From a virus (Duplodnaviria; Caudoviricetes), in IMG/VR virus record IMGVR_UViG_3300025411_000647, positions 1 through 52,534 of that record: 52,534 nt of DNA, one strand, 5' to 3'. The notes under the pieces were generated by a model that saw only the letters and a program-made list of their open reading frames with translations, was not told the origin of the DNA and ran no database searches. How positions within the stretch are numbered: position 1 is the stretch's first letter; every line of letters begins with the position of its first letter. Positions 5,746 to 44,264 of the stretch are shown here, piece after piece. The position numbers and the translations under genes are program-made.

Positions 5746-6408
5746 TTACATGAAAACATATCTTTTGTCAATCATTTCTAAATGCTGGTATATCTTTTTG
5801 GATAACTTTTTGGTAAGAGGATTTAGTCCAAAGTGGCTTATATATGCCCTAAGTTGTGGGCTAGAAAATTGACTACCTGTCCTCATCTTGCTCAAAACGC
5901 TGATCCTGCCCATACGTTTTTTAGCACGGTCGGCATCCATCGTGCGCAGTAGTTCAATAGCTATGCTAAACGCATAAGCATCCATTTCATCATCGTCGGC
6001 AAGATAACGCTCGTAAGGTGTGTCAAAATGTTCGCCGTATTGATTATGATCCCTGCGCATACTTTGATACTGATGTCTAAACTCATGTACAGTAGCATCG
6101 AAAATTTCTGTAAGGAAACTAGTCACTTGATGCGGACCAAACGGCTCGTCTCCTTTTAGATTGTGATAAACTATGACTTCTATAGCAGTATCCATATTAT
6201 AGTCATTCTCACTGTCGTAGTAAGCCATGACATACCATTTGTCTACGTCTAAGTCTCGATCTTTTTTACTTTTGATAGCAATATCAAAATCGTATAATTT
6301 GAATGTATTGCGTGTTCGACCAATAAGGTTTTTGAAAGTTGTCTGCTCAGGACAGTCTTCTCGAACTTTTTTACATACATTATATACACGTTCGAGAATG
6401 ATGTTCAT
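5746..6408 (-). CDS. putative HExxH metalloprotein
   Basis: HEFRH...E.DAYA zincin-like motif. Confidence 0.6.
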   Translation of the reverse strand: MNIILERVYNVCKKVREDCPEQTTFKNLIGRTRNTFKLYDFDIAIKSKKDRDLDVDKWYVMAYYDSENDYNMDTAIEVIVYHNLKGDEPFGPHQVTSFLTEIFDATVHEFRHQYQSMRRDHNQYGEHFDTPYERYLADDDEMDAYAFSIAIELLRTMDADRAKKRMGRISVLSKMRTGSQFSSPQLRAYISHFGLNPLTKKLSKKIYQHLEMIDKRYVFM

Positions 6409-6807: not shown

Positions 6808-7341
6808 TTAAACTTCGTCATCCTCATAAGGAACTGGTCTCCACCCCAAACGGTTCAAGTCCAATTCAATTTCTTCAGTGACTACACCTTCTGGTACATA
6901 GCCTTTAGTACCCTCTTCGTCCCCATTACCAAGGCCTCCGCCGATACCGCTACAATACCAATCGATGTAATCACCTTCTTCACGCATATCGGCAATTATA
7001 CCGCCAGAGTGACGCCAAGAGCAAGACCAAGTTTCACCTTTCATTTCCTGCCAAAACTCTCTGCTTTGCCAAGTCATGTTACACATGGCCGCATATAAGT
7101 TTTGAGCATAGCTATCGCTGGCTTTGACTTTATCGCACATTTCTTTTGAGCTACGGAGATCGTATTCCATGTTGTTCTTTTGCCACCTAGGGTCCTTTAG
7201 ATTTTTTTCGTCTTGTTCACGGAAAGTCTTGTACATATTAACATAATCAGGATTAGGCTCTTTACCTTTTTCCTCACAGCGTTTGATGTACCCTTCTTTT
7301 TGAAAGGTATGTCGTTTTGGACTACTTGCTACTTTTTTCAC
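6808..7341 (-). CDS. hypothetical phage protein
   Basis: 177-aa ORF. Confidence 0.7.
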   Translation of the reverse strand: MKKVASSPKRHTFQKEGYIKRCEEKGKEPNPDYVNMYKTFREQDEKNLKDPRWQKNNMEYDLRSSKEMCDKVKASDSYAQNLYAAMCNMTWQSREFWQEMKGETWSCSWRHSGGIIADMREEGDYIDWYCSGIGGGLGNGDEEGTKGYVPEGVVTEEIELDLNRLGWRPVPYEDDEV

Positions 7342-7661
7342 TTATGAAAATTACCTTGTAAACAATGTCGAACTTCGTGTCCGATTGTATGAAAATTTGC
7401 TGTATTAGCAGTGACAATAGTACACTCGCTCATATTGTAATTCCAAAAACTACAAGCTTCAATGCTGTAACCAAAAGCGGGCTTGCCTCTTTTAATTGCT
7501 TCTGAACTACATGTACCTTGTACATTATTAGTTTGAATAAAAGAAATTTTAACTTGATTTGTTTCGTTATGAGTCATATCAAATTGTTGATGCGGATCTT
7601 CGTAATATGCAAACACGTTAGAGGTTACTAACATTAATACAGTTGCTATTGCCTTTTTCAT
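7338..7661 (-). CDS. secreted HExxH protein
   Basis: Signal peptide; GHEVRHC motif. Confidence 0.6.
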   Translation of the reverse strand: MKKAIATVLMLVTSNVFAYYEDPHQQFDMTHNETNQVKISFIQTNNVQGTCSSEAIKRGKPAFGYSIEACSFWNYNMSECTIVTANTANFHTIGHEVRHCLQGNFHK

Positions 7662-7689
7662 TTTGCCTCTTTCTTTGCCTAATTAAAAA

Positions 7690-7800
7690 TGGTACAGACG
7701 GTAGGATTCGAACCTACAAAGCTGCCATATTGGCTAAGCCCATTCCCTCCGTTCGCCGAAGCTACTAGGAGGAGGTTTACCATGTTACACTCACGTCTGC
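7690..7800 (-). ncRNA. tRNA-like RNA (111 nt) with no anticodon loop and a sarcin-ricin-loop-like arm
   Basis: Acceptor GCAGACG/CGTCTGT+A+CCA; T arm GTAGG-TTCGAAT-CCTAC; central arm CCTCC-TAGTAGCTTCGGCGAAC-GGAGG; long variable arm. Confidence 0.8.
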
Positions 7801-7806
7801 AATGCT

Positions 7807-7835
7807 AGTTTAACATAGTTTGTAAATACTGTCAA
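7807..7835 (-). promoter_or_regulatory. sigma70 promoter for the tRNA-like RNA
   Basis: TTGACA-17-TAAACT; predicted +1 falls at about 7800, the first acceptor nucleotide. Confidence 0.7.
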
Positions 7836-8797
7836 TGCAATTTTCAAACATACCTTTCGAAAAAATTACTCATTTTGGACAACAAACTATGTTGGATCGT
7901 CCATTATTTAACATAAGTTGGATATTAGGAAGATTTTGTAATTACAAATGTAGCTATTGTTGGCCTTATGCTAGGACTGACAAGCCTGATCACCAACCGC
8001 TTGAAGTATATAAATCTACTGTAGACGAGATTAAGCGTCAAGCACGAGCCAATGGGTTTGACCAGTTCCATTGGTCGTTCAGCGGTGGTGAACCAACTGC
8101 TTACAAGTACTTACTTGATTTGATTAAACATTTGGACGATGGTATCCAAACTCCTTATCAGACTGTACACATGACTACTAATTTGAGTCCTAGTTTAAAT
8201 TGGTGGCGTAGTTGGCATCATACAACAGAACTTTTACAAAGGAGAAGCATCACAGCCAGCTATCATGCAGAGTTTGCCAAAGAACAAGAATTTGGAGATA
8301 AGTGTTTACAATTAATGTACGATCTAGTACATGTTACTATTAACCAAGTGATGGTTCCGGAAAAGTTCTATGAAACACTAGAACGATGCGAACGATTCAG
8401 AGAACGAGGAATCAATGTAACTCTCAAACCACAAAGCAATGACACGGCTACTGCTGTAGTAAATGGGTACACACAAGATATGATTGATATCATGCAAAAT
8501 GATTTTGAACAGCAGGAAGGATATCAAATACGTTTAACAGACGGCACCCAAGATTATTACATAGATCAAGCAGAAAGATTTAATGCCCTAGGATTTAATC
8601 AGTTTGCCGGATGGACTTGCAATAGCGGCTATCAGAGTGTTATAATAAGAGGTAATGAAGTAAAACGAGCATATAGTTGTAAAGAAACAAGTTTAGGTAC
8701 GATAGAAAAATTTACTTTGTTTTCTGCACCTAAACTTTGCACAACAGATAGATGTGTTAGTAGTGCCGATAGCAAAATACCAAAATGTATAAATTAG
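7835..8797 (+). CDS. radical SAM protein (C-terminal Cys cluster)
   Basis: CNYKCSYC, SGGEP, TTN; C-terminal twitch/SPASM-like Cys. Confidence 0.9.
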   Translation: MQFSNIPFEKITHFGQQTMLDRPLFNISWILGRFCNYKCSYCWPYARTDKPDHQPLEVYKSTVDEIKRQARANGFDQFHWSFSGGEPTAYKYLLDLIKHLDDGIQTPYQTVHMTTNLSPSLNWWRSWHHTTELLQRRSITASYHAEFAKEQEFGDKCLQLMYDLVHVTINQVMVPEKFYETLERCERFRERGINVTLKPQSNDTATAVVNGYTQDMIDIMQNDFEQQEGYQIRLTDGTQDYYIDQAERFNALGFNQFAGWTCNSGYQSVIIRGNEVKRAYSCKETSLGTIEKFTLFSAPKLCTTDRCVSSADSKIPKCIN

Positions 8798-9792
8798 AAG
8801 ATATACGGGATGTCCATTTAGAAGTAACAACTAAGTGCCAAGCAAGGTGCCCTATGTGCCCACGACGTATCAATGGAGGAGTTTTGAATCCATTAATGTC
8901 ACTAGTTGAAATAGATTTAGAGACATTTAAACAATGGTTTAGTGAAGAGTTTATTCAACAACTTGATAGTTTGTTTATGTGCGGTAATTTAGGAGATCCT
9001 ATTATTGCACAGGATTCTTTGGAAATTATACGTTACCTGAAAACAGTTAATCCTAACATACGATTAAGTATGCACACTAATGGCAGTGCTAGGAGCACTC
9101 AATGGTGGGAAGCATTAGCCGTTACGGGTACTAGAGTTGTATTTGGTATTGATGGATTAGCAGATACACATTCATTATACAGAATCAATACAGACTGGAA
9201 TAAGATCATAGAAAATGCTGAGGCATTTATTAATGCCGGAGGATATGCAGAGTGGCACATGTTGGTGTTTAAACATAATGAACACCAAATTGAAGAATGT
9301 CGTAGCATGTCAGAACAATTAAAATTTAAAACATTTCAAATTAAACATACAACAAGATTTACCGACGTTAAATTTCCTGTGTTAGACGACACTGGTAAAA
9401 CTATCTATAACTTGTACCCGTCTACTAAGACAGAAGAAATGTTACCGCAAATATTAACTTATGCTAGAGATTTGCCAATGTCACAGATTGATGCCAATTG
9501 TACAATTAACTGTAAAGCAGTTAAATGGAAGCAAATTTATGTTGCGGCTTCGGGTAATGTAGGGCCTTGCTGTTGGATGGACTTTAAAGAAAAATTACAT
9601 AAACAAAATACACGTATTGACTATATGGATAAAATAGGAATGTTTCCTAATCTGTACGAACAATCTTTGGCAGACATTTTTAATTCTGGGTATTTTGATA
9701 AAATTTCAAATACTTGGGATAACGAACCTGTATTTGAATGTGCTAAACAATGTGGTAAGTTTGACAAGTCGGGATCGCAATATGAATGTTGA
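8785..9792 (+). CDS. radical SAM/SPASM-twitch protein
   Basis: CQARCPMC, GNLGDP, HTNG, GIDG, PCC. Confidence 0.9.
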   Translation: MYKLEDIRDVHLEVTTKCQARCPMCPRRINGGVLNPLMSLVEIDLETFKQWFSEEFIQQLDSLFMCGNLGDPIIAQDSLEIIRYLKTVNPNIRLSMHTNGSARSTQWWEALAVTGTRVVFGIDGLADTHSLYRINTDWNKIIENAEAFINAGGYAEWHMLVFKHNEHQIEECRSMSEQLKFKTFQIKHTTRFTDVKFPVLDDTGKTIYNLYPSTKTEEMLPQILTYARDLPMSQIDANCTINCKAVKWKQIYVAASGNVGPCCWMDFKEKLHKQNTRIDYMDKIGMFPNLYEQSLADIFNSGYFDKISNTWDNEPVFECAKQCGKFDKSGSQYEC

Positions 9793-10378
9793 TACAGAAC
9801 ACTTACACTATTGGATGCAGGCCATACGTCAAAGTCCAGATCCTATGCGGACTATGGACGCCTTTTGGTCTGGTCAACTTAAAAGCAAAGAGTGGCTAAT
9901 CGATTGTTTAGACGAACATGTGCATTTTGCTTCTAGTATCGATATACATGGCGGATGGGTAGGTGTGTTAGCCAGTATGTTATTTCAAAGTAATATACCT
10001 ATCACTACTATTCGTAGCATTGACATTGATCCGTCCTGCGAACCTATCTCCACTATGATGAATAAGGGAGAAGAAATAAAAGGACGCTTTAAAGCGGTCA
10101 CTTCCGATATGTGTGTTATCCGTAGTGATGCAGATATTGTTATTAACACTAGCTGTGAGCATATTACACAAGACCAATACGACTTATGGTTGAGTGGTAT
10201 GCCTTACGATACATTATTTGTTTTACAAAGTAATAACTATAATATTCCCGAGCATGTCCGTATCGCTAATAGCTTAGAAGAATTTAAAGAACAATGCGAT
10301 GTTAATGTATTATGGGCAGGCGAATTAGAATTGCCATTATATACTCGTTATATGATTATAGGAAAACAAAATGTTTAA
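9782..10378 (+). CDS. class I SAM-dependent methyltransferase-like protein
   Basis: GGWVG glycine loop, SIDID, INTSCEH; start reassigned to MNVDTEH. Confidence 0.7.
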   Translation: MNVDTEHLHYWMQAIRQSPDPMRTMDAFWSGQLKSKEWLIDCLDEHVHFASSIDIHGGWVGVLASMLFQSNIPITTIRSIDIDPSCEPISTMMNKGEEIKGRFKAVTSDMCVIRSDADIVINTSCEHITQDQYDLWLSGMPYDTLFVLQSNNYNIPEHVRIANSLEEFKEQCDVNVLWAGELELPLYTRYMIIGKQNV

Positions 10379-11456
10379 GTTTAATGAACTTAAGAGTGTT
10401 CATATAGAAATCAGCAACAGATGCCAAGCATCGTGTCCTATGTGTCCACGTAACATACACGGTGGAATCGAAAATCCATTATTACCTATTAATGAATGGT
10501 CCTTTGATGATTTTGTTAAAATATTTCCTAAAGATGTTTTATCGCAACTTAGGACAATTAATTTTTGTGGAAACTTTGGCGATCCATTAATGAATAATGA
10601 TCTTATCTACATGTGCAAGTATGTTAAAGATAATGCACCTGATATTGAAATACTACTAAACACTAACGGTAGTTTGCGTTCTACTGCTTGGTGGAAAAAA
10701 TTAGCTAGTGTATTACCTGAAAATCATAGAGTAGTATTTGCATTAGATGGACTAGAAGATACTCATAGCATTTATAGGGTAGGAACTAATTTTAATTTAA
10801 TTTTAAAAAATGCTAGAACATTTATCAATGCAGGTGGCATTGCTGAATGGGTGTTTATTAGGTTCAAACATAACGAGCATCAAGTTAATGATGCAGAAGT
10901 ATTATCTAATGAGTTAGGGTTTAAACGATTCAGTGTTAAGAATAGTAGAAGACACGCTCGCCCATTTCCAGTAGTTGATAATCAAGGTAAATTTTTATAC
11001 AACCTTGAACAACCATCGGATAGTGAAGTTAAATTTGTAAGCAAATCTTCTATTCAAGGACATCGGAATTGGCCTAATGCTGATAAAATAAATTGTATGG
11101 CTATTAATGACAAAGAGTTGTATATCGATGCACACTACCAATTAAGCCCTTGTTGCATGATTGGCGCATTTCTTTACACAAACTATGATGTCGAACTGTT
11201 AAAATCCTACAATTTGTTCCAGGAAGATTCGGTTGTTGAAGAAGGCGAATTAGTACGACAGCAAATATTAGGATTTCCAAGATTAAATGTTTTAGAAATG
11301 GGGTTAAAAACAATTATAGAAACGGATGCTTGGCAAACAATGTGGCAACAAAAATGGAAGGACAAGTCTAGTTCAACTTGCATAATAATGTGTGGACCGC
11401 ATAGTCCTTTTATAAAAATAGATGAACAAAAATTTAAGATAGCAGATAATGAATAA
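10371..11456 (+). CDS. radical SAM/SPASM-twitch protein (paralog of 8785..9792)
   Basis: CQASCPMC, GNFGDP, TNG, ALDG, PCC. Confidence 0.9.
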   Translation: MFKFNELKSVHIEISNRCQASCPMCPRNIHGGIENPLLPINEWSFDDFVKIFPKDVLSQLRTINFCGNFGDPLMNNDLIYMCKYVKDNAPDIEILLNTNGSLRSTAWWKKLASVLPENHRVVFALDGLEDTHSIYRVGTNFNLILKNARTFINAGGIAEWVFIRFKHNEHQVNDAEVLSNELGFKRFSVKNSRRHARPFPVVDNQGKFLYNLEQPSDSEVKFVSKSSIQGHRNWPNADKINCMAINDKELYIDAHYQLSPCCMIGAFLYTNYDVELLKSYNLFQEDSVVEEGELVRQQILGFPRLNVLEMGLKTIIETDAWQTMWQQKWKDKSSSTCIIMCGPHSPFIKIDEQKFKIADNE

Positions 11457-12867
11457 AGTATTTTGGTTACAACCGGAAGAAACACAATTAGGTAATTGGC
11501 AACAACAAATTACTGAAGTGTCGGGTAGTCCTAGTTTTTGTGTCTTACCATGGATACATTTAGCAACGCGACCAAATGGCGACATGCGTATATGTTGTGT
11601 TGCTAATGCATCAGGAGCTGATACCGGTGATTATACTGTTGGGTTAGTTAAAATGGAAGACGGCAAGCCTGCTAACTTTTCACATGACTTGCCCACCGAA
11701 GCATTCAACAATGACTATATGAAGTCAGTTCGTAAAACTATGTTAGCAGGTGAAGTGCCTGCTAGTTGTGTTAAATGTTATGAAGAAGAAGCAGAAGGCA
11801 TTGCTAGCAAGCGTATTTGGGAAACTGGTACATGGTACTTAAATGAAAAAATTGACATTAAAGAGTTAATTGCTGAAACAGAATTAGATGGATCTGTTCC
11901 TTATAAATTACAGTACTTAGATCTGCGTTTAGGACACACTTGTAATTTAAAGTGTATTATGTGTAGTCCACACGATAGTAGTATGTGGGTACCAGAACAT
12001 AAAAAAGTATTCCCTATTTTTACCAGTCCATTAATTAAAAAACAAATGAGTTGGGAATCGAGCGAATTTAATAATAACTGGCATGAAAATCCTGCATTCT
12101 GGGAAGAAGTATATGATCAAATTCCTAATATTAAACAATTGTACTTTGCTGGTGGAGAACCTTTATTAATTAAAGAACACAAGGTATTTTTATTAGAAAT
12201 TATTAAACGTGGTTATGCTAAACAAATTAGTTTACGTTACAATACTAACGGCATCTTAGTTAACGATGAAATTATTGATATATGGAGTCAGTTCCGCAAA
12301 GTCAAGGTAGGTGTTAGTTTAGATGGAATCGGCCCGCAAGGCGAGTATATACGTTATCCGTTAGACTGGCGAACTGTGGAAGACAACTTAATTAAGTTAG
12401 ATAACGCACCTGATAATATACAGACTAATATTGCCATGGCCGTACAAATTTTAAACATTATGCACGTTCCTGATTTTATAAAATGGAAAGTGGGTATGAA
12501 CTTTAAGAAGATTAATTTTGATAAAAATGCCGCAGGTCATGTTATGGGTGGTGGGTTAGTCGGCGTACATCTACTTTGGATCCCTACATGGCTGAGTCTT
12601 CGTGTATTACCTAAAAAAGACAAACTAGAAGTTAGAAGATTGTTTGGCGATTTACAGGAATGGTTATGGAAACACTATACTCAGGACAAAGAGTTCTGGG
12701 AAACTAACCCGTATGGCTGGAAACGTTGGGAAGGTATACTAGATTGGATGGACAAAGAAGATCATACAAACTTGCTACCAGATTTTAAAGATTACATTAT
12801 TACAATGGACAAACAGCGTAAGACTAATTTTTCTACTACTTTTCCTGAGCTGGCACATTTAATATGA
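11449..12867 (+). CDS. twitch-domain radical SAM protein
   Basis: N-terminal C.LPW...ICC...CVKC; CNLKCIMC; AGGEP. Confidence 0.9.
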   Translation: MNKVFWLQPEETQLGNWQQQITEVSGSPSFCVLPWIHLATRPNGDMRICCVANASGADTGDYTVGLVKMEDGKPANFSHDLPTEAFNNDYMKSVRKTMLAGEVPASCVKCYEEEAEGIASKRIWETGTWYLNEKIDIKELIAETELDGSVPYKLQYLDLRLGHTCNLKCIMCSPHDSSMWVPEHKKVFPIFTSPLIKKQMSWESSEFNNNWHENPAFWEEVYDQIPNIKQLYFAGGEPLLIKEHKVFLLEIIKRGYAKQISLRYNTNGILVNDEIIDIWSQFRKVKVGVSLDGIGPQGEYIRYPLDWRTVEDNLIKLDNAPDNIQTNIAMAVQILNIMHVPDFIKWKVGMNFKKINFDKNAAGHVMGGGLVGVHLLWIPTWLSLRVLPKKDKLEVRRLFGDLQEWLWKHYTQDKEFWETNPYGWKRWEGILDWMDKEDHTNLLPDFKDYIITMDKQRKTNFSTTFPELAHLI

Positions 12868-13940
12868 AACAAATAGTTTCAATTGTATCTACGCAACCTA
12901 AAGACCATCTTAACATAGGCTGGGCAACTAGCAACATTTGTAATTTTAAATGTAGGTATTGTTTTCCAGGATCAAACGAAGGAGATGCACCTAATCCTAA
13001 AAATGTCGATTTAATAGTTAACAACATCACACACTTGATCAATCATTACAGAACAACACTAGATAAGAAATTTTTTCACTTAACTGTACTAGGTGGAGAG
13101 CCTACAGTATGGAAGGACTTTGGTAACTTTTTAGAAAAAATTAAATTAGTAGATGGCGTGTATGTATCAATACTATCTAATGGTAGCAGAACCTTGCGTT
13201 GGTGGAGAGAATATGGTGGGTTGATTGACAACTTAACTTTGAGCCTGCACGTTAGTCAAGCAGATCTTGACCACTCTATTCAAGTTGCAGATATTGTCTA
13301 CGGTCTTGGTAAGAAAGTTACAGTACAAGTATTAATGGATACAGACTGTTGGGATCAGTGTGTAGAGGCTGTTGACTACTTGAAAAAAAATAGTCGGTAT
13401 CCTTGGATGATTGAAACTAAACCGGTTGTACATTCAACTGTTGAATATACACCTATACAAACAGAGTACCTAAAATCTAGTTTAAAGAGGTATCCAACTT
13501 TTACATGGTTGCTTAAAAATATCCGTTATTTGTTTAATGGGCATATAAGACTTTATAGAAGTATTGCCAAGTTTAACGACGGTACAAAATTAAAAGCTAA
13601 ACCCTCTACTTACATATTATCAGGCAATACAAAATTTAAAGGATGGAGTTGTGATATTGGTATAGAAAGTATTTTAATCGATCAATACGGTAATATAAAT
13701 GGATCTTGCGGACAAACATTATTCAATACTAACATATTGGATAATAATTTTATATCAAAATTTAACCCTCATTTAGGTGCTACTATATGTAATATGGATG
13801 CTTGTATTTGTTTACCCGCAACACATGCATCAAAGTTTGATTTTGGTCAAGGGAATATCAGCCGCACAAGTGCAGAAGTTCCTATCACATTCGATAGGAT
13901 TAGAAGGAACCAAAAAACTTCCGGTATAGATATTTCCTAA
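12864..13940 (+). CDS. radical SAM protein
   Basis: CNFKCRYC, GGEP, SNG; C-terminal Cys cluster. Confidence 0.9.
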   Translation: MKQIVSIVSTQPKDHLNIGWATSNICNFKCRYCFPGSNEGDAPNPKNVDLIVNNITHLINHYRTTLDKKFFHLTVLGGEPTVWKDFGNFLEKIKLVDGVYVSILSNGSRTLRWWREYGGLIDNLTLSLHVSQADLDHSIQVADIVYGLGKKVTVQVLMDTDCWDQCVEAVDYLKKNSRYPWMIETKPVVHSTVEYTPIQTEYLKSSLKRYPTFTWLLKNIRYLFNGHIRLYRSIAKFNDGTKLKAKPSTYILSGNTKFKGWSCDIGIESILIDQYGNINGSCGQTLFNTNILDNNFISKFNPHLGATICNMDACICLPATHASKFDFGQGNISRTSAEVPITFDRIRRNQKTSGIDIS

Positions 13941-14729
13941 ACTACCTCCTACCCGGCAAGTAGCACGATGCACATCGCCGTCCCAATTGATCATTAGGCT
14001 TTCTATACCAGAATTACAACTCCATCCTTTAAATTGATTTTGATGGTTCTTGATCATATCATTAGCATGGTACATCACGGTGTCTACTTTATCTAACCAA
14101 ACTACTGTATTTGCTCCTACTGTAGATTCCATAGCTTTAATAAATTCTAAGTCTGTAGTATTATAACGCATGTCATCGAATAAATCATGATCGCCTTTAG
14201 TCCAGCGTATACGACGGACAGTATTAGGAATATTTCCTAATTGGCATTTAGCTCGTAGTTGCATAGCGGCAGGCATATAATCGTGATGGGCCATAATTTG
14301 TGCTATAACTTTAACCGTCTCTAGTTTATGGATGCTTTCGACGGTATTGAATACACGTTTCCAATCATACTCTAAATGTATACTAAACACATATTGGTCT
14401 ACAGGAAGACCAATATAAAATTCATATGGGCGAGTCCCATTAGTTGTTACACTAATCCAACTTATACCAACATGCTTACAATATTTTACTAACTCGTCAA
14501 ATTTAGGATGTACGCAAGGCTCACCTCCTGTAAAACTTAAACGCACAGGTTTGCCTAATAGCACTAATTGATCAACACAAGATTTTAAAATTTCTATATC
14601 TGTATGTGTGCTAGTATTGTCATGTATTTCACTAGGGCAATAACTACAGTCATAGTTACAACGCTTGCCAAGATTCCATTCAATCTTGATTGTATTCTGA
14701 TGGGGGTATCGACTGGTTACTTTAATCAT
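13830..14729 (-). CDS. radical SAM protein
   Basis: CNYDCSYC, TGGEP, TTNG; C-terminal C..CTC. Confidence 0.9.
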   Translation of the reverse strand: MIKVTSRYPHQNTIKIEWNLGKRCNYDCSYCPSEIHDNTSTHTDIEILKSCVDQLVLLGKPVRLSFTGGEPCVHPKFDELVKYCKHVGISWISVTTNGTRPYEFYIGLPVDQYVFSIHLEYDWKRVFNTVESIHKLETVKVIAQIMAHHDYMPAAMQLRAKCQLGNIPNTVRRIRWTKGDHDLFDDMRYNTTDLEFIKAMESTVGANTVVWLDKVDTVMYHANDMIKNHQNQFKGWSCNSGIESLMINWDGDVHRATCRVGGSLGNIYTGSFLVPSNPIECDRNFCTCAADIPLTKIKL

Positions 14730-15553
14730 AATCTGTTCGGCGGTTGTCGATAAGGCTTTTCAAAGTCTCCAAATATTTTCAGTTGCCATTGTTTTGTTAA
14801 TTCTCTAGCACTATCACTCAACGTGTTATTAGGCCATACCCAATCTAAAAATTTTAATGCTTCCTCGGGGGTAGGGTGTAAGTCGTTATCAGGTACCACT
14901 CTTGATTCAATACGACCATCATTAAACCATTTATAAGTAGCATCTACATTAGTAAATACATCTTGATATAATTCGATCACATCGCGATCATCGAAAAATT
15001 CAGCAATAGCACCGCCTTGATAAACTTCTTGGCTTGTTTTCTTCCACAGTTGTAGTAGAGATTCTTTATCTTCAGATTTCTTAAAAGGTTCTCTTAACTC
15101 TTCGCTATTAAAAAACTCATACCAAGTAAAGTTTGCCCAATCGCATTTTTTGTTTTTTAGTATAGTTTGAATGGCTTTCATGTACGCTAAATCTCTTATT
15201 AAGAAGCCTCTAGTATCTGTACCATATTTTTTTACCCAATCTTTACCGTATATGCGTTCTTGTCCAGAAGATGAAGCAATTAACCATTCGTTGTTAGAAT
15301 ATCTATCTTCTCGTTCCTTTGGACTCCAAAATATAATAACTAAATCATTTTTGTCAAAGTTATATCTAGTATCGGCTTCTATAACACTATTAAAAATATA
15401 ATGGTTGCCTGCACCTGGCTGACCCCAGTTCTCGTAATACTCGATGTCATGGCCGATGATATCTGCCCATGTCAGCCATTTGTAATTAGTAAAACTACAT
15501 CCAAAGGCAAAGAAGCGTTTATATTTTGCAGGATCAAGATTTTTTAGTTTCAT
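14726..15553 (-). CDS. SGNH/GDSL-hydrolase-like protein
   Basis: FGCSFT, N.G.PGAGN and C-terminal D.HP blocks. Confidence 0.65.
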   Translation of the reverse strand: MKLKNLDPAKYKRFFAFGCSFTNYKWLTWADIIGHDIEYYENWGQPGAGNHYIFNSVIEADTRYNFDKNDLVIIFWSPKEREDRYSNNEWLIASSSGQERIYGKDWVKKYGTDTRGFLIRDLAYMKAIQTILKNKKCDWANFTWYEFFNSEELREPFKKSEDKESLLQLWKKTSQEVYQGGAIAEFFDDRDVIELYQDVFTNVDATYKWFNDGRIESRVVPDNDLHPTPEEALKFLDWVWPNNTLSDSARELTKQWQLKIFGDFEKPYRQPPNRL

Positions 15554-16818
15554 ACATAATTCCTAAACTCTGGAGTTACATCTGTAAAACTTTGTTTGCG
15601 GGTGACATCCAACCTACGATTAAATTCTACACAATCTTGCCACTTATCGCTTTGATCTCTAGCTTCTAAGTAATTGATATTGTCTTGTATCTGCCCAAGT
15701 GTATATTCTAATAGTTGAGGGTATTGCTTAACCATAGCAAAGTCTTTAACTCGTAAGCTAACTGATTGTAATCTCTTAATTGCCAAGGCACGCAGTTCAA
15801 ATGGTAACACTTGTGCAGATAATACTTTAGGGTATTCAACACGATGAGTATGGAATACAATTCCAAGGTCATTTAAAAAGTATTCAATTATCTTGTCTAA
15901 AATTAAGACATTACTAACCTGTACAGTAACGGCACCTACAATACGACTAATGTTTGAGATAGTCTGTATCTGTTTGACATTGTTAATCAACTCTGCCCAG
16001 CTAGCATTACCACGGATATATTCGTAACTAGCACCCATACCATCTATACTTACATTAACAGCAACACTTTTAAATTTAGGCCAATACTCCCAAACTGTTC
16101 TATTGCTCTTGCCCAGCATACTTAGATTAGTAGCATACTTGATTTCAATCTGATGCCCATATGGTGCAAGCATATCTAAAATGCGATAGTGCTGAGGATC
16201 CATTAATGGTTCACCGCCTGCAAATTCTACACGTCGGAAATAAGGTAAGTTTTTTTCTAAACTAGCCCACCATTCTGGATTATCCTGGAATTTGTCAAGG
16301 AATGGTTTATTTTCTAAATTATGATCTTCTACAATAGCATACATGATGTTATTTTCTTTCTTGTAGAAATCTTTAATTTCTCCCCAATCATTCCAACTGG
16401 TACTATCCATAGGATGGCACATGCGACATTTAAGGTTACATAAATTATTAAGTTTGAGTTCCATGGTAGGAATTTCAAAAGGCATTGTAAAATCGCTATT
16501 CATAGATTCTACAGCACGTGGATACAGTTTAATTCTAGCCTCGGGTATTTTCCCAGCAACATGACGTTGTCTAAGGCTTTCTACTCCTTGATCTTCTAGA
16601 CTAAAACAAGGTTCACACTCAGGTGGCTTGTAGCCATTTAGTACTTGGTAACGAATACGTTTCATATTGTCACTGTTCCAGATTTCTTCAAGTGTGTTAT
16701 TTTCTATGTTTCCAATAGGATGACTTCGACAGCATACACAAATAGCACCGTCTTCTCTTGTAGCCAATCCTGTAAAAGGATGCATACAGAATGTAGGAGG
16801 ATTAACGTTCAGAGACAT
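15550..16818 (-). CDS. twitch-domain radical SAM protein
   Basis: N-terminal CMHPF...VCC...CEPC; CNLKCRMC; AGGEP. Confidence 0.9.
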   Translation of the reverse strand: MSLNVNPPTFCMHPFTGLATREDGAICVCCRSHPIGNIENNTLEEIWNSDNMKRIRYQVLNGYKPPECEPCFSLEDQGVESLRQRHVAGKIPEARIKLYPRAVESMNSDFTMPFEIPTMELKLNNLCNLKCRMCHPMDSTSWNDWGEIKDFYKKENNIMYAIVEDHNLENKPFLDKFQDNPEWWASLEKNLPYFRRVEFAGGEPLMDPQHYRILDMLAPYGHQIEIKYATNLSMLGKSNRTVWEYWPKFKSVAVNVSIDGMGASYEYIRGNASWAELINNVKQIQTISNISRIVGAVTVQVSNVLILDKIIEYFLNDLGIVFHTHRVEYPKVLSAQVLPFELRALAIKRLQSVSLRVKDFAMVKQYPQLLEYTLGQIQDNINYLEARDQSDKWQDCVEFNRRLDVTRKQSFTDVTPEFRNYV

Positions 16819-37442: not shown

Positions 37443-37520
37443 TGGAGCTACGGGAGGGATTTGAACCCCCGGTTTTACGGATTTGCAATCCGCTGCATTG
37501 GGCCACTCTGCCACCGTAGC
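37443..37520 (-). tRNA. tRNA-Cys(GCA)
   Basis: Cloverleaf, loop TT-GCA-AA, U73, encoded CCA. Confidence 0.9.
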
Positions 37521-37529
37521 ATATCTATT

Positions 37530-38063
37530 TCAATAAGCCCACGATACAAAAGAATATCGTGTACCTTTGGTAACTTCTTCGACTCTATGACGATATAAGA
37601 AAGTTGAAGGAAATACTAACACATCACCTTGATTTAAATTTATAACTCGATCGTTCATTATAAATTCTCCGCCTTCGTAGTCATCATTCAATGATCCTAC
37701 AATACTTAGCACCGGAATACCATCATCTTGATGTCGCCTAATTAAATCAGTATGTTCGCTCATCACTGTTCCTGTTTTATATCTATTAAATCGAGGTTGA
37801 CTAAATTGAGTAATTAACCCATCTAAACCAGTTTCCGCATAGTAATTTGTAATGCAATCTATTAAAATAGGTTGTAACGCAATTGATTCATTATTATAAA
37901 GTACATCGAGTTCGCGTGTCGGACGACTCTTTGCACTGTCGTCAAACGGAGTATACCATTTATGCATTTCCCAATTAGTATTACTTTCACACACAGTGAT
38001 TAACTTATTGCATACATCCTGCGGAATTAAATTTTTAACTTTTATATAAGAATCGACGGACAT
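37530..38063 (-). CDS. 2OG-Fe(II) oxygenase (prolyl-hydroxylase-like)
   Basis: HTD, DYEGGE, FPS...H.V..V..G.RYS. Confidence 0.9.
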   Translation of the reverse strand: MSVDSYIKVKNLIPQDVCNKLITVCESNTNWEMHKWYTPFDDSAKSRPTRELDVLYNNESIALQPILIDCITNYYAETGLDGLITQFSQPRFNRYKTGTVMSEHTDLIRRHQDDGIPVLSIVGSLNDDYEGGEFIMNDRVINLNQGDVLVFPSTFLYRHRVEEVTKGTRYSFVSWAY

Positions 38064-38064
38064 T

Positions 38065-38652
38065 TTATTCGTCTGCTTCTACTAAAATTGTATTAAATGC
38101 AATACTGATTCGATCTTCTTTACTCAAATTAGGTTGTGTATAGTGCATCAACCAAGAAGGAAACATTATCAATAATCCAGGCGATGGCGGTAATGTACAC
38201 AGTTGTGAATTAAATGATCCGGGCTTACCAATTGCATCTGTTGGAATTGTATGATAAAAAGAAGTTACAGGATTCAACATTTCTATGCATCCTGAACGTT
38301 CTTCTGCTTTTACATAATATACACCCGAAAGGCACGAATGTGGATGCATATGAGCTTTATTATAATTCAATGGTTTGTTTATGTTAATCCACACATTGGA
38401 AATAATTTGTTTAAATTTATCGTTAAGCCCGATTTCTTTATGAAGCGTATTTGCCTGCTCTTCGATAGTAGTTACGAACAATTTCATTTCATCTGCTAAA
38501 CTAACATCATTGCTTTGCCAACCACCCTCATTGCTAATAAAAACTCCAGGATCTGTACCCATTACTGTGTAGGCGTACTTTGTTAGTTCGTCGTTATTAA
38601 AATTTAAGTTATCTGTTGAAACAAAGTTTGAAAAAATTGGTATAATATTCAT
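38065..38652 (-). CDS. 2OG-Fe(II) oxygenase (TIGR02466-like)
   Basis: SN.GGWQS, HMH, SGVYY, FPSWL.H, RISIAFN. Confidence 0.9.
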   Translation of the reverse strand: MNIIPIFSNFVSTDNLNFNNDELTKYAYTVMGTDPGVFISNEGGWQSNDVSLADEMKLFVTTIEEQANTLHKEIGLNDKFKQIISNVWININKPLNYNKAHMHPHSCLSGVYYVKAEERSGCIEMLNPVTSFYHTIPTDAIGKPGSFNSQLCTLPPSPGLLIMFPSWLMHYTQPNLSKEDRISIAFNTILVEADE

Positions 38653-38664
38653 ATTTTTATATTT

Positions 38665-38739
38665 TGGTAGGACGTGACAGGTTCGAACTGCCGACCTCTT
38701 CCGTGTAAAGGAAGCCTTCTACCGCTGAATTAACGTCCC
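38665..38739 (-). tRNA. tRNA-Val(TAC)
   Basis: Cloverleaf, CTTCC-TT TAC AC-GGAAG, CCA. Confidence 0.9.
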
Positions 38740-39011
38740 AAATATTTTCCACTACGATCAATAGCACGATCGCGAGGAGTGTTAAATTTAATCTTCTTCA
38801 TGTATTCTGGACCAATCTCTCCATTTTGAAATTCAAGTAAGGCTGTTACATTAGTATGAACATCTTCAAACTTTTGGCTACTAGCATTTTGACGTCGTAG
38901 TTCACGACTACGTGCTGCTGCCATAATAACAAGATTAAACCTATTGCCGCCGGCTTGTTTTACACAAGCATCGTTATTGAGTTGAGTTCCGCGACTGATA
39001 TATTGTGGCAT
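38730..39011 (-). CDS. rpoZ: RNA polymerase omega subunit homolog
   Basis: C......NRFNLVIMAAARSREL...VTALLEF..G.I omega pattern; start reassigned to MPQYIS. Confidence 0.8.
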   Translation of the reverse strand: MPQYISRGTQLNNDACVKQAGGNRFNLVIMAAARSRELRRQNASSQKFEDVHTNVTALLEFQNGEIGPEYMKKIKFNTPRDRAIDRSGKYLGR

Positions 39012-39033
39012 ATGATATCCTTTGTAAAAACTT

Positions 39034-39062
39034 ATTATATAATCTTTATTGACTAATGTCAA
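39034..39062 (-). promoter_or_regulatory. sigma70 promoter for rpoZ-tRNA-Val
   Basis: TTGACA-17-TATAAT. Confidence 0.85.
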
Positions 39063-39064
39063 CA

Positions 39065-39649
39065 CTATTCTCGATATTTCACGTCTGCAGCCAAAATAAA
39101 TCTATAATTGTTACTTTGCACAATACCTGGACGATGCCATATTTTACTTGGGTAAATTAACCAAGTATATTCGCTTGGGCGTACAAATAATTTGCCGTCA
39201 CCAGTAGGCCCGTTTGGAGCCATTTCTGTACCGCAAGTATCTCTATCAGTAACATCTTCAGGAATATGCAAATACATAATTCCACTCATTTTTTTTACAA
39301 TGCTACCTTCTTTTACATCCTGTGCATGATGATGCCACAGATTGTCTCGATCTTGCTGCCCTGCCAAATTAGTCATGAAACTCCATGCCATCATATCACT
39401 AACTTGAACTTCTCGACCAAGATACATAAACACACTCATTAAAAAACTCATGCGGTATTTTAACCAAACTGGATCTTGTATTTTAAATAAATTTTCCTCT
39501 GTTTGAAACAGCGGACTATTTTTAAAATACTTACCACTATTGATGATTTGTTGTATAGTGTTTATAGCATACTTTGTATCATCAGATGTGATTACACTGC
39601 TGAAATCGAATTTTTTAAATATGCTATCTTGGTCGATTACGGGTATCAT
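39065..39649 (-). CDS. 2OG-Fe(II) oxygenase-like protein
   Basis: WHHH, SGIMYL, YPS..WH, R. Confidence 0.7.
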   Translation of the reverse strand: MIPVIDQDSIFKKFDFSSVITSDDTKYAINTIQQIINSGKYFKNSPLFQTEENLFKIQDPVWLKYRMSFLMSVFMYLGREVQVSDMMAWSFMTNLAGQQDRDNLWHHHAQDVKEGSIVKKMSGIMYLHIPEDVTDRDTCGTEMAPNGPTGDGKLFVRPSEYTWLIYPSKIWHRPGIVQSNNYRFILAADVKYRE

Positions 39650-39909
39650 GCTGTACGTTTAATAATGTGATAACCAAACTGTGTTTGTACAGGCTCACTG
39701 ACACTGCCTACGGCTGTTGCAACTGTAGCATCTTCAAATGGTTTAACCATTGCACCTGGTCCGAATTCTCCTAGATCTCCGCCGTTGCGACCGCTCGGAC
39801 ACTTGCTGTGTTGTGCGGCTAGTTGCGCAAAATCGGCACCTTCACTTATTTGATTTTTTAGGTTTACTGCTTCGATCAGTGTTGGTACTAGTATGTGGCT
39901 TGCTCTCAT
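39646..39909 (-). CDS. ppiC: parvulin peptidyl-prolyl isomerase
   Basis: ASHILV, F..LA..HS.CPS...GGDLG.F..G.MV..FE, TQFGYHII. Confidence 0.9.
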   Translation of the reverse strand: MRASHILVPTLIEAVNLKNQISEGADFAQLAAQHSKCPSGRNGGDLGEFGPGAMVKPFEDATVATAVGSVSEPVQTQFGYHIIKRTA

Positions 39910-40012
39910 TTTCTTTTTCCTTTTTAAAAATTTTATCCCAGTTGTTACTAAACGTATTTTGATCCACACTATACGGACGTGGACGACTTCCTTTTCCTGC
40001 TTCACCTGCCAT
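39842..40012 (-). CDS. small basic phage protein
   Basis: GKGSRPRP...NWDKIF motif; GGAG SD. Confidence 0.55.
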   Translation of the reverse strand: MAGEAGKGSRPRPYSVDQNTFSNNWDKIFKKEKENESKPHTSTNTDRSSKPKKSNK

Positions 40013-40601
40013 TATGTTCTCCAATTTCATCTAAGTAGCAATTAAATGCAATGCTAATCCTATCAGCACCGCTACGATTGGGCTGAACGCTGTGCATCAT
40101 CCAAGGTGAAAATATCAAACATGATCCCACTTCAGGATGTTCCCAATGCGTTCCGCTATTGTAATTATTATGTTGTACTACTGTTGAATTTGATATAGTA
40201 TAGTTATGCTCTCTTACTGGATGCAAGAATTCAATTGCACCAGATGCTGGTTCAGCTTTAACATAATATACACCTGTAAAAAAAGAATTAGGATGAGTAT
40301 GAGTTTTATTATAATCGCCTGGGCGATTTAAATTTATCCATGCTTGTCCTACTACAGGTTTAAACTTGTTAGAGAATCCCAAACTACTATATAATTCAAC
40401 AAGTTTAGTATCAACTTGATCTATCAATGGTTGCAATTCAATCCTATCTTGTATTAATTTACTTTGCCAACCACCTTCATTGCTTGAAAACACACCAGAG
40501 TCCGATTGACTCAAATCATAAGTGAGTTTTTCTAAAATGCTATTGTCGACATCTAAATTAGATTTAGAAAGCAAACTGATAAAAAGAATCTTTGTTTCCA
40601 T
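40002..40601 (-). CDS. 2OG-Fe(II) oxygenase (TIGR02466-like)
   Basis: SNEGGWQS, HTH, GVYY, H.V, RISIAFN. Confidence 0.9.
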   Translation of the reverse strand: METKILFISLLSKSNLDVDNSILEKLTYDLSQSDSGVFSSNEGGWQSKLIQDRIELQPLIDQVDTKLVELYSSLGFSNKFKPVVGQAWINLNRPGDYNKTHTHPNSFFTGVYYVKAEPASGAIEFLHPVREHNYTISNSTVVQHNNYNSGTHWEHPEVGSCLIFSPWMMHSVQPNRSGADRISIAFNCYLDEIGEHNGR

Positions 40602-40616
40602 TAAACACTCTACAAT

Positions 40617-40693
40617 TGGTCGGAGTACAAGGATTCGAACCTTGGACCTCCTGGTCCCAAACCAGGCGCACTACCAGGCTGTGCTACACTCCG
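40617..40693 (-). tRNA. tRNA-Pro(TGG)
   Basis: Cloverleaf, C1-G72, loop TT TGG GA, CCA. Confidence 0.92.
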
Positions 40694-40699
40694 ATATTC

Positions 40700-41308
40700 T
40701 TAGACAAAGTTTGGTCCGCATATCCATCCTACTAAACTACGTCTAACACCTTTAGTAACAGGTGCTACACTGTGAGGAATGAATGATGGGAATAAAACCA
40801 TGTCGCCTTTATTTAATTCTACTACAGCAGGATCTTTTAAATAATGAAATTTTAATTCGCCGCCTTCGTACTCACTTGGATCATTTAATAAAATACTAAA
40901 TGAAATTTTTCTATTAAATCCTGTAGGATCTCTTAATGTACTATCACAATGTACATCATAATTTCCTAAATCTTCGCTTCGATATACGCTATATTGTAAT
41001 GGTTCTAAGTAACTAACACTATATTTAAAATTTTGAAAATTAACAGTTAATGCTACATCAATAATCCTATCATATAATTCTTTAAATAATTGCATGTCGT
41101 CTAACCACATTATGTCAGTTATTCGAGATGTAATGTCAAGGTTGCGTTTTTCACCTTGTTCTCTGTTATTTTGAACAGCAGCTGATTGTAATTTTTCAGG
41201 ATTCAAATTGGCATAATTTTCTACACTAGAAATTAAATTATTGTCAATTGCCTTTACTACAGTATAAGTCCATGCTTGTGGACGATTAGGCGCTTCAAAC
41301 CAAAGCAT
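40700..41308 (-). CDS. 2OG-Fe(II) oxygenase (PKHD/prolyl-hydroxylase-like)
   Basis: HCD, RKIS, EYEGGEL, FPSF..H.V.PVT.G.R.SLV.W. Confidence 0.9.
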   Translation of the reverse strand: MLWFEAPNRPQAWTYTVVKAIDNNLISSVENYANLNPEKLQSAAVQNNREQGEKRNLDITSRITDIMWLDDMQLFKELYDRIIDVALTVNFQNFKYSVSYLEPLQYSVYRSEDLGNYDVHCDSTLRDPTGFNRKISFSILLNDPSEYEGGELKFHYLKDPAVVELNKGDMVLFPSFIPHSVAPVTKGVRRSLVGWICGPNFV

Positions 41309-41324
41309 ATAAACCTTTTATTAT

Positions 41325-41398
41325 TGGAGCGGAGTGAGAGAATCGAACTCTCGACCGAAGATTGGAAATCTGCTGTTTTACCATTAAACTAACCCCGC
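41325..41398 (-). tRNA. tRNA-Gly(TCC)
   Basis: GCG start, loop TT TCC AA, U73, CCA. Confidence 0.9.
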
Positions 41399-41403
41399 AT
41401 ATC

Positions 41404-41967
41404 TTACCATTCAGATGTGTCATAAACAAACCATCCTGTAATTATGTATTTTACTTCATTGTCACATGGCATGCCTTGATGCATGTGAGTCCAGTCGGCT
41501 GGCCAAATCAAAGTTAAACCTTTTTCAGGTTTTACTTGTAAATTTTGATACAAAAATTCAGTGCCGCCACCTTCTTCTATATCATTCAAATAAGTCATGT
41601 AAACTAAATGACGATTGATAATATGTTTAAAACCATTTTGTTCGCAATGCCATCCTTTATAGTATTTTCCAGCGTCATATCTTTGAACTTTAACATCTGG
41701 AAACAACATCCATTTTGCTAAATGCATATCTAATGTAGGAGCAAATTCTGTTTTATATTTGTTCAAAGCTGTTGCCAATTCACTAATATATCTAGATTTT
41801 ATATCAGACGAAAACTCTGCTAGTTCTGAATTCTTATATGTTTTTATGCCTGACTTGAATCTCTCTAAATTATTTTCAGATTCCGTATATATATCATCAC
41901 ATAGTTTAGTATCTATGTAATATCCTCTGATAAATGGATTTTGTGAATTTAATGTATGTTCGCGCAT
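41404..41967 (-). CDS. 2OG-Fe(II) oxygenase
   Basis: WHCE, YLND.EEGG.TEF, WPA.WTH.H.G, KYIITGW. Confidence 0.9.
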   Translation of the reverse strand: MREHTLNSQNPFIRGYYIDTKLCDDIYTESENNLERFKSGIKTYKNSELAEFSSDIKSRYISELATALNKYKTEFAPTLDMHLAKWMLFPDVKVQRYDAGKYYKGWHCEQNGFKHIINRHLVYMTYLNDIEEGGGTEFLYQNLQVKPEKGLTLIWPADWTHMHQGMPCDNEVKYIITGWFVYDTSEW

Positions 41968-41980
41968 AATTTAAAAATTA

Positions 41981-42182
41981 GTGTCTAGCTACTCCCACCA
42001 CAGGAGCCCTAGACCGAGCTGTTACTCTGTCCATATCATTTCTTCTTCTGGCTAGGTTGATAGTCCTAACCCACGATAGTTTTAAGTCATCCATATAGCG
42101 GATCTCTAAGGCCATTTCCGTGAGTGCCCGGAGGATATGGTAACCTCCTACCCACTTTATTCTCGGAAAAGTGTAACCGGGA
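41981..42182 (-). ncRNA. candidate structured ncRNA (~200 nt)
   Basis: Non-coding and GC-richer than its flanks; at least 5 hairpins plus long-range complementarities; directly 3' of tRNA-Thr. Confidence 0.55.
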
Positions 42183-42185
42183 TTT

Positions 42186-42261
42186 TGGTGCCCCTTGTCC
42201 GACTCGAACAGACCACCTACTGATTACAAATCAGTTGCTCTACCAGATGAGCTAAAGGGGC
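42186..42261 (-). tRNA. tRNA-Thr(TGT)
   Basis: Cloverleaf, loop TT TGT AA, CCA. Confidence 0.92.
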
Positions 42262-42266
42262 AAATT

Positions 42267-42488
42267 TTATTCTACGTTTACTGCACTAGTTTCACTAACT
42301 TGATAGTTACTGGTTCCACGAGGTGCTCGATCTTTCTTCTCAGGCTTAATAACGACTTCGCTACATAATTGAGCATCGATCATCATACGTTTAAATTGAT
42401 TACGCTGTTCTGCTGTAGATCCTTTCATTAATGCAAGCATACGTTTGTATGATTTTGCAAACTTAAATGTCTTACTTGGTTTTAACAT
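42267..42488 (-). CDS. small basic hypothetical protein
   Basis: 73 aa, AAGGA SD, fills an inter-tRNA gap. Confidence 0.65.
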   Translation of the reverse strand: MLKPSKTFKFAKSYKRMLALMKGSTAEQRNQFKRMMIDAQLCSEVVIKPEKKDRAPRGTSNYQVSETSAVNVE

Positions 42489-42508
42489 AACTTTCCTTTT
42501 ATATAACT

Positions 42509-42598
42509 TGGCGGAGCGACTGGGAGTCGAACCCAGTCAACGCTATTACACGTTGTACGGATTAGCAATCCGCTGCCTTACCGTTCGGCCACCGCTCC
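42509..42598 (-). tRNA. tRNA-Ser(GCT)
   Basis: Long variable arm, loop TT GCT AA, G73. Confidence 0.92.
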
Positions 42599-42626
42599 GT
42601 GCGGTATTTTACTTATACTAACTAAC

Positions 42627-42713
42627 TGGTGCGAATGGCCGGAATCGAACCGGCATGGACTTGCGCCCGACAGATTTTAAGTCTGTTGTGTCTACCTATT
42701 TCACCACACTCGC
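42627..42713 (-). tRNA. tRNA-Leu(TAA)
   Basis: Long variable arm, loop CT TAA AA, A73. Confidence 0.92.
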
Positions 42714-42723
42714 AATTTAATCT

Positions 42724-42797
42724 TGGCATCCCCCCAGGGATTTGAACCCCGACCAACAGTTTTGGAGACTGGTATGCTGCCATTACACTAGGGAGAC
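42724..42797 (-). tRNA. tRNA-Trp(CCA)
   Basis: Loop CT CCA AA, G73, CCA. Confidence 0.88.
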
Positions 42798-42803
42798 ATT
42801 GAT

Positions 42804-42917: not shown

Positions 42918-42922
42918 TAACT

Positions 42923-44263: not shown

Positions 44264-44264
44264 G

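Follow-up and report, generated by a model that had tools for sequence, protein, structure and literature searches.

When phages carry transfer RNA (tRNA) genes, the usual view is that these help with codon usage or replace tRNAs that host defences have cut. Among tRNA-like RNAs that do not decode, the tRNA-like structures of plant RNA viruses are aminoacylatable, lie at genome 3' ends and are built with pseudoknots, and in YrlA, a bacterial Y RNA whose partner is Ro60/Rsr, the two ends of the molecule form a Ro-binding stem. In helix 95 of 23S ribosomal RNA (rRNA), the sarcin-ricin loop (SRL), it is the GAGA loop that is contacted by elongation factors and by most toxins directed at the SRL. 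The sarcin-ricin motif as such is described in one source as recurrent, modular and autonomous, with five sites in large-subunit and three in small-subunit rRNA (PMC8450098), and another states that some jumbo phages encode the protein partner of YrlA (PMC7824862). A third source reports that leucine identity in Escherichia coli is set by A73, A15-U48, G18G19, A20a and the D-loop/T-loop contacts, that the anticodon and the variable arm are not determinants, and that tRNA-Leu variants without anticodon and variable arms are still charged (PMC9976931). The element considered here is a 111-nucleotide (nt) tRNA-shaped RNA encoded on the minus strand at 7800->7690 of a 52,534-nt stretch of virus DNA (Duplodnaviria; Caudoviricetes; positions 1 to 52,534 of IMG/VR record IMGVR_UViG_3300025411_000647), the whole of which is referred to below as the window.

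It is very likely that this is a real, conserved RNA that was derived from tRNA-Leu and has no anticodon. The reading tentatively preferred for it, at somewhat less than an even chance, is that of a phage gene for a non-decoding mimic of a class II tRNA, most likely tRNA-Leu, with a role off the ribosome. An earlier note on the window, made by a model from the letters alone, had described a 111-nt RNA with a full acceptor stem, A73-CCA and a T arm, and had seen at the anticodon position an AGUA/GAA loop under a C(UUCG)G cap, held in a tRNA frame; both descriptions hold for the sequence at 7690-7800 (-), where the predicted AGUA/GAA bulged-G core lies in a hairpin capped by GC-UUCG-GC. The parts of the RNA, in window positions, are as follows.

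7690-7800, minus strand: the whole tRNA-like RNA, 111 nt, scoring 122 bits with R1, the covariance model of the RNA family.
7794-7800, minus strand: 5' strand of the acceptor stem (RNA 1-7), pairing with 7694-7700 and including a G1.U72 pair.
7774-7791, minus strand: D arm (RNA 10-27), with A14/A15, G18 G19 and U20 A columns that are invariant in alignment A2.
7745-7773, minus strand: arm at the anticodon position (RNA 28-56), made of a CCUCC/GGAGG stem, an internal loop and a cap, with no 7-nt loop.
7763-7767, minus strand: UAGUA, the 5' strand of the sarcin-ricin-type loop (RNA 34-38), equal to E. coli 23S 2653-2657.
7755-7762, minus strand: cap GC-UUCG-GC (RNA 39-46), with 10 cap types among relatives.
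7751-7754, minus strand: GAAC, the 3' strand of the loop (RNA 47-50); E. coli 23S has GACC at this site.
7720-7740, minus strand: long variable-arm hairpin (RNA 61-81), a class II tRNA feature, in which six of seven pairs change on both sides.
7701-7717, minus strand: T arm (RNA 84-100), 5 base pairs (bp) and a UUCGAAU loop, with three of the five pairs covarying and 100% of cells paired.
7690-7700, minus strand: 3' strand of the acceptor stem (7694-7700; RNA 101-107), discriminator A73 (7693; present in 82 of 82 sequences) and encoded CCA (7690-7692).

The window RNA also has U8 between the acceptor and D arms, and its pair 3-70 is A3-U70. Its folding energy is unremarkable when taken alone (z = -0.91), ARAGORN makes no tRNA call at the locus and Rfam gives no match there at gathering score; in E-value mode the Rfam tRNA model (RF00005), whose cut-off is 29 bits, scores it at 18.2 and covers the 3' half only. 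The locus is taken to be a real RNA because of covariation in its relatives. The alignment used, A2, holds 82 distinct RNA sequences, and the cloverleaf structure was specified from the alignment itself. In it 98.1% of cells pair, compared with 86.8% in shuffles, compensatory changes on both sides occur in 15 of 26 pairs, and the covariation score is 0.348 against 0.124 for shuffled alignments (a value of 0.348 being reached by none of 500) and at most 0.074 with partners slid. Covariation is seen in acceptor pairs 1-3, in three T-stem pairs and in the variable arm; acceptor pairs 4, 6 and 7 are invariant, the stem at the anticodon position (helix 3) is paired in 94.6% of cells and the D stem of the family has just two constant Watson-Crick pairs. 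The columns for U8, A14/A15, G18G19, U20-A, U48, U54U55C56, A58, A73 and both C of CCA never vary, and the terminal A of the encoded CCA is found in 80 of the 82, the other two having CCG. The acceptor, D and T arms and the conserved tertiary nucleotides of a canonical tRNA are all present, these arms and the long variable arm are backed by covariation, and the cloverleaf is under selection. That the window copy goes uncalled by ARAGORN and Rfam and has no anticodon might suggest a functionless, decaying tRNA pseudogene. This is scarcely credible, as it runs counter to compensatory changes in four helices, invariant tertiary nucleotides, a fixed promoter geometry and occurrence on at least 119 contigs, and no decayed intermediates were seen.

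A pattern derived from the arm at the anticodon position matched at least 119 viral stretches; among the matches listed, 30 were true relatives, recognised by a T arm, acceptor stem and CCA, and 89 were chance matches. A pattern built on the 5' half of the RNA, in which the sarcin-ricin motif was not included, matched at least 119 viral contigs. The family has no entry in Rfam 15, and no relative was found among 50,697 records of cultured phages by blastn of the region or by tblastn of the 107-amino-acid (aa) protein encoded downstream. Two exact patterns, one for the 5' half and one for the T arm plus 3' acceptor strand, gave no matches in 185,579 bacterial and archaeal species genomes (one genome per species), on which ground bacterial or archaeal copies, and an attP-type copy of a host tRNA, were both discarded as candidates. 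At least half of the window's sampled words occur in 19 freshwater metagenome DNA runs, three of which may be its source. The carriers of the family are large freshwater jumbo phages; the window is rated as 14% of a complete genome, and in a relative of 345 kb, with completeness rated at 94%, a single copy of the RNA lies 23-31 kb from the tRNA matches. Mimics of tRNA as such are already known, and it is the anticodon-less family that appears, on the searches made, to be new. Full-text searches of the literature turned up no account of the RNA, although a 2023 IMG/VR catalogue, with 8,495 candidate structured RNAs, may list it in its supplements (PMC10690425).

The 7-nt anticodon loop on a 5-bp stem is absent from every family member. 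Tips are either 4-nt loops or longer capped helices, and in the minimal members a 6-7-bp helix is closed by UUCG, UUUG, UUAG or CUUG. The earlier note had allowed that the arm might be an intron which splices out to give an ordinary tRNA, and this is ruled out by the minimal members, since an arm ending in a 4-nt loop has no spare letters and leaves no anticodon to restore; nor were intron families found at the window by Rfam in E-value mode. Standard detectors respond to the minimal members in a misleading fashion. ARAGORN called all 10 of 10 as tRNA at the exact family coordinates under six different anticodon labels, and it follows, from plain-tip members being labelled in this way, that automatic annotation of these phages will contain false tRNA genes; the Rfam tRNA model gave one minimal member 28.4 bits, below the cut-off of 29. 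For the record, the labels were Pro, Arg, Ser, Gly, Gln or Leu and the loci L132, L148, L166, L175, L208, L140, L155, L188, L181 and L211.

The canonical tRNAs closest to the family are those for leucine. With R1 the window's own tRNA-Leu(taa) scored first at 35.3 bits and its tRNA-Leu(tag) second at 29.5, all others reaching 23.9 or less. Four family members were tested for their D arm, and in three it was nearest to that of the window's tRNA-Leu(tag); the window copy's own D arm matched tRNA-Gly(tcc) best, with the two tRNA-Leu next. Held against the leucine rules of E. coli, the A73 discriminator is present throughout (82/82) and the columns matching A15-U48, G18G19, A20a and the D/T-loop contacts are invariant, the mapping of positions to columns being our own.

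The preferred reading can be set out as a series of steps. The RNA would fold into the tRNA L-shape, and its 3' end would be freed by cleavage in the U/A-rich spacer that follows it and by trimming to CCA, as in other CCA-encoding tRNA genes. Because A73 and the D/T-loop set sufficient for the leucyl-tRNA synthetase (LeuRS) of E. coli are kept, the RNA would, by analogy, be bound by host LeuRS and probably charged, and further enzymes that respond to the shape of tRNA would recognise it too. An RNA without an anticodon cannot decode and would therefore act off the ribosome via its tRNA body, possibly as a sink or decoy, made early and abundantly, by which a host factor reading tRNA shape, the acceptor end or CCA is drawn off, with the sarcin-ricin (bulged-G) loop serving as an exchangeable docking module at the tip. 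Action in trans through the tRNA body is a proposal to be held tentatively, and no more firmly than the reading as a whole.

The position of the gene bears on whether the RNA acts in trans or in cis. The elements that surround it are listed here.

7830-7835, minus strand: -35 hexamer TTGACA, from a promoter scan.
7807-7812, minus strand: -10 hexamer TAAACT, separated from the -35 by a 17-nt spacer and ending 6 nt before RNA position 1.
7662-7689, minus strand: U/A-rich spacer of 28 nt with a Shine-Dalgarno-like GAGG and no terminator.
7338-7661, minus strand: first operon gene, 107 aa, with a signal-peptide-like N-terminus, four invariant Cys and HExxHC.

TTGACA-17-TAAACT, which the earlier note had proposed as the RNA's own promoter, is the top promoter-like site in 7300-8000, of sigma-70 type and near consensus with 10 of 12 letters, and the distance of about 30 kb that it gave between the RNA and the tRNA operon was also accurate, the tRNA cluster (27 ARAGORN calls) lying at 37443-47414, some 29.6 kb away. 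Of 86 distinct upstream sequences of the family, 85 place the end of a TAnnnT box exactly 6 nt ahead of position 1, and 85 carry, at 17 nt from the -10, a box that resembles TTGACA with 0-1 mismatch. This fixed promoter register in the relatives suggests that transcription by host RNA polymerase starts at about G1, in which case there would be no 5' leader to remove. The spacer from RNA to first start codon is mostly 21-31 nt in relatives, and a homologue of the 107-aa protein lies 3' of the RNA in 99 of 113 loci.

These facts suit the main rival explanation, in which the operon transcript carries the tRNA-like fold as a module at its 5' end, there to protect that end or to mark a processing site, so that the 5' end of the messenger RNA (mRNA) is defined as in tRNA punctuation and any free RNA is a by-product. 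The RNA is always promoter-proximal, is separated from the start codon by 21-31 nt with no terminator, and keeps its place even where the first gene is a different one (e.g. L099, L126, L173). Moreover, in two distant relatives without the RNA (L286, L254) the same protein gene lies inside a true tRNA array, which makes a tRNA-linked origin plausible. However, loci gathered through the downstream protein gene include 20, of the best 80, in which a promoter alone, without the RNA, precedes the gene; the RNA is therefore dispensable for the gene. A processing signal would have no need of an A73 that never varies, of CCA in the gene, of a D loop of the Leu type or of a conserved variable arm, and a transcript beginning at position 1 would leave RNase P nothing to cut. 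On balance a role confined to cis is considered unlikely, if the most serious of the alternatives to a mimic acting in trans.

A number of observations weigh against the trans-acting mimic. The constant place of the RNA at the head of the operon, 21-31 nt before a start codon whichever gene comes first, suits action in cis and action in trans equally well. The identity rules applied to LeuRS are those of E. coli and may not be those of the host, and G3.U70, an alanine determinant, occurs in 5 of the 82 sequences, a poor fit to strict leucine identity. Four RNA or possibly-RNA sequencing runs covered relatives only, at 85-95% likeness; one 180-nt contig of an RNA library, with 12 differences, spans 7683-7773 and extends past the 3' end of the RNA, it being borne in mind that RNA libraries can hold DNA and that contigs show no RNA ends. 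A search for a partner found no gene within 7 kb that tracks tip type (best uncorrected p = 0.0013, at the head of the list for the 80 largest gene clusters, of which those with at least 20 covering loci were compared). Finally, six tRNA-linked families (TROVE, Leu/Phe-transferase, CDPS, FemAB, class Ia synthetase and CCA-adding enzyme) were not found in the window or in the two relatives searched, the 94%-complete one among them.

The feature that first drew attention to the locus is the tip. The record for E. coli K-12 rrlH gives 23S 2649-2671 as CTCCTAGTA-CGAGAG-GACCGGAG, which agrees with the SRL sequence given in the earlier note and with its count of arm matches (9/9 and 7/8): the two strands equal 23S 2649-2657 and 2664-2671 in 16 of 17 letters, the single difference being A in place of C2666. 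When both strands were searched for together in the 16S, 23S and 5S rRNA of E. coli, the best site was 23S 2649, with one mismatch of 17, and none of 300 strand-shuffled arms came within one mismatch. With random letters in the four flanking pairs around an unchanged UAGUA/GAAC core, 3 of 300 did so, and the identity of the stem, given a sarcin-ricin-type loop, is thus about a 1-in-100 event; the match of the bare 9-mer is within shuffle range. CCUCC/GGAGG is, however, the constant stem of the family, present with or without the motif, and it supplies 8 of the 17 matching letters. The native GAGA tetraloop with its C-G closing pair is not in the window, and a pattern for the native CGAGAG cap in the family context gave no matches, so no family member was seen to carry it. 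The other tips of the family gave longest exact matches of 7-11 nt to E. coli 16S, 23S and 5S rRNA, within the range of shuffles, and the idea that they too are rRNA mimics was dropped. The stem (window 7745-7775, -) has the same letters as a Shine-Dalgarno/anti-Shine-Dalgarno duplex, and ACCUCC is invariant in the family; the likeness is probably coincidental.

Where the motif occurs it does not vary. AGUA/GAA is found in 43 of 95 distinct RNAs from all scans, and its seven letters are the same in 43 of 43; AGUA is preceded by U in 38 of these and by A in the other 5. Above the motif there are 10 forms of cap, including UUCG, GCAA and GAAA tetraloops and loops of 6-7 nt, and the stems covary. 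No versions of the motif with 1-3 changes were seen, comparable arms without it differing at 4-7 of the 7 positions, and this invariance together with the want of intermediates points to selection on the motif in its carriers. A count of tips that does not depend on the sequence of the RNA itself was obtained from the best 80 loci gathered through the downstream protein gene. The RNA is present in 60 of them (56 by pattern, and L256 and L278-L280 by eye and model), and the motif, in 35 of the 60, is the commonest tip; the other 25 have a plain tetraloop-capped helix or an unrelated tip. The scan with the 5' pattern gave the motif in 44 of 90 distinct strings among the matches listed. On conservation of AGUA/GAA under a variable cap, which the earlier note had put forward as a check, the homologues give a mixed answer: the motif is invariant under 10 caps where present, and 25 of 60 loci are without it. 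On a FastTree tree of the adjacent radical S-adenosylmethionine (SAM) protein from 79 loci, rows found through the motif pattern being included, the state of the motif changes at least 14 times, and at least seven of these changes are forced by well-supported branches. The closest relative of the window, whose neighbouring radical SAM protein is 92% identical, has a plain tip.

The explanation offered in the earlier note was that a tRNA frame stabilises a non-cleavable copy of helix 95 as a decoy for SRL-directed ribotoxins or defence effectors, or as a ligand for translational GTPases. The near-identity of the strands to 23S, matched by so few arms with random flanks, the invariance of the motif under different caps with no decayed version seen, and its standing as the commonest tip speak for such a decoy, and frequent switching of tips could reflect an arms race. 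Against this, many RNA-bearing loci, the closest relative among them, lack the motif, which comes and goes repeatedly on the tree, and the matching stem belongs to the family whether or not the motif is there. The GAGA loop is carried by no member and the other tips resemble no rRNA hairpin beyond shuffles. Nor does the core alone point to helix 95, since the motif recurs at eight conserved rRNA sites (PMC8450098). The motif-less relatives weaken the idea of an SRL decoy as the function of the family, and it survives, at low probability, for the subfamily with the sarcin-ricin-type (S-type) tip. A wider version, equally improbable, is that a Leu-type tRNA without an anticodon serves as a display scaffold for swappable modules at the tip of its anticodon arm that bind and neutralise defence effectors or translation factors; the RNA would be made early and in quantity, its commonest module would be an uncleavable copy of helix 95, and swaps of tip between near-identical phages would be the record of an arms race. 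In our reading of the RNA as a non-decoding mimic, the sarcin-ricin module is an optional, exchangeable tip, selected where it is present and not needed for the core job.

The 107-aa protein belongs to no Pfam or PHROG family, and after its invariant HExxHC come a G that is nearly invariant and an H that is invariant. Beyond its gene come families of about 180, 72, 220 (again with HExxH) and about 230 aa, for which no Pfam or PDB family was matched, and no relative of solved structure came up in profile searches with the 220-, 224- and 177-aa families. The 224-aa protein has a confidently predicted fold (predicted local distance difference test score, pLDDT, 90) with a C-terminal beta-barrel for which the OB-fold matches are weak (E 0.02 or worse), and a structure search with the predicted fold of the 177-aa protein matched nothing. 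As a separate observation, HExxH is invariant in two conserved operon proteins, the 107-aa protein, predicted to be secreted (7338-7661, -), and the 220-aa protein (5746-6408, -), and these may be new small zinc peptidases outside known families.

On the other side, seven radical SAM genes fill 7835-16818 in a block that spans both strands and is divergently adjacent to the RNA operon. Three of the seven also have SPASM or twitch-like matches, and no specific NCBIfam model is matched above its cut-off by any of the proteins. Homologues of the first gene (cluster 0) are conserved beside the RNA in 81 loci, and a second cluster of radical-SAM size (cluster 2) in 59. A cluster of such density is unusual for a phage. 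Together with the leucine-type identity elements and the missing anticodon, this neighbourhood might be taken to mean that a leucine-charged, anticodon-less tRNA feeds phage enzymes, possibly those of the radical SAM cluster, without misincorporation. Such an amino-acid carrier is regarded as very improbable: Leu/Phe-transferase, CDPS and FemAB are among the families not found in the window or the 94%-complete relative, the radical SAM proteins reach the cut-off of no specific model, and their link to the RNA is one of adjacency only. Two further RNA loci of the window may be mentioned. At 52370-52534 (-), running off the window end, is a match to the family of permuted two-piece transfer-messenger RNA (tmRNA; RF04321, 55.4 bits against a cut-off of 47). 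At 46027-46118 (-) ARAGORN reports a 92-nt tRNA-Ile (UAU), not listed by the Rfam tRNA model, whose fold (z = -2.98) combines an anticodon stem of 7 bp with an odd D arm and a long extra arm, which makes it a second non-standard tRNA of the same phage.

If the RNA is a non-decoding mimic of tRNA-Leu, as is tentatively preferred here, its interest lies in a tRNA body that has been kept under strong selection after losing its decoding part, in phages that carry 27 ordinary tRNAs; the keeping of the one without the other points to a function of tRNA off the ribosome. Viral data from fresh water contain the family in abundance, and standard detectors are unreliable on it. It also provides a natural experiment, as the same scaffold occurs with and without the sarcin-ricin module in near-identical genomes, and such paired scaffolds make what a free sarcin-ricin motif binds in the cell directly testable.

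Of the known systems, class II tRNA-Leu is matched in the 7-bp acceptor, A73-CCA, the Leu-type D loop with G18G19, the long variable arm and the canonical T arm, and among canonical tRNAs the family model matches best the tRNA-Leu genes of the window itself. The family differs from it in having no 7-nt anticodon loop and a D stem with two constant Watson-Crick pairs, in apparently starting at position 1 and heading a protein operon some 30 kb from the tRNAs, and in that the copies tested score below the Rfam tRNA cut-off. Helix 95 of 23S rRNA has its counterpart in the predicted 5x4 loop UAGUA/GAAC, with the AGUA/GAA core, the CUCC/GGAG flank and the U.C apposition, whereas in place of GAGA and its C-G pair the family has variable caps, and the motif is missing from 25 of 60 loci. 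With the tRNA-like domain of tmRNA it would share the character of a chargeable tRNA mimic without an anticodon, charging being putative here; the window RNA, unlike tmRNA, lacks an mRNA-like part, a tag frame, pseudoknots and a constant G3.U70, retains both the whole D arm and an arm at the anticodon position, and is not called tmRNA by ARAGORN or Rfam. YrlA is likewise non-decoding with tRNA-like features of the D/T elbow, but the ends of the family RNA form an acceptor stem with CCA, and the TROVE protein was not found in the window (14% of a genome) or two relatives. The tRNA-like structures of plant viruses differ in structure and place, the family being a gene of DNA phages whose RNA, at the 5' end of a transcript, forms a true cloverleaf, yet the strategy proposed here, viral mimicry of tRNA that recruits host tRNA enzymes without decoding, would be the same.

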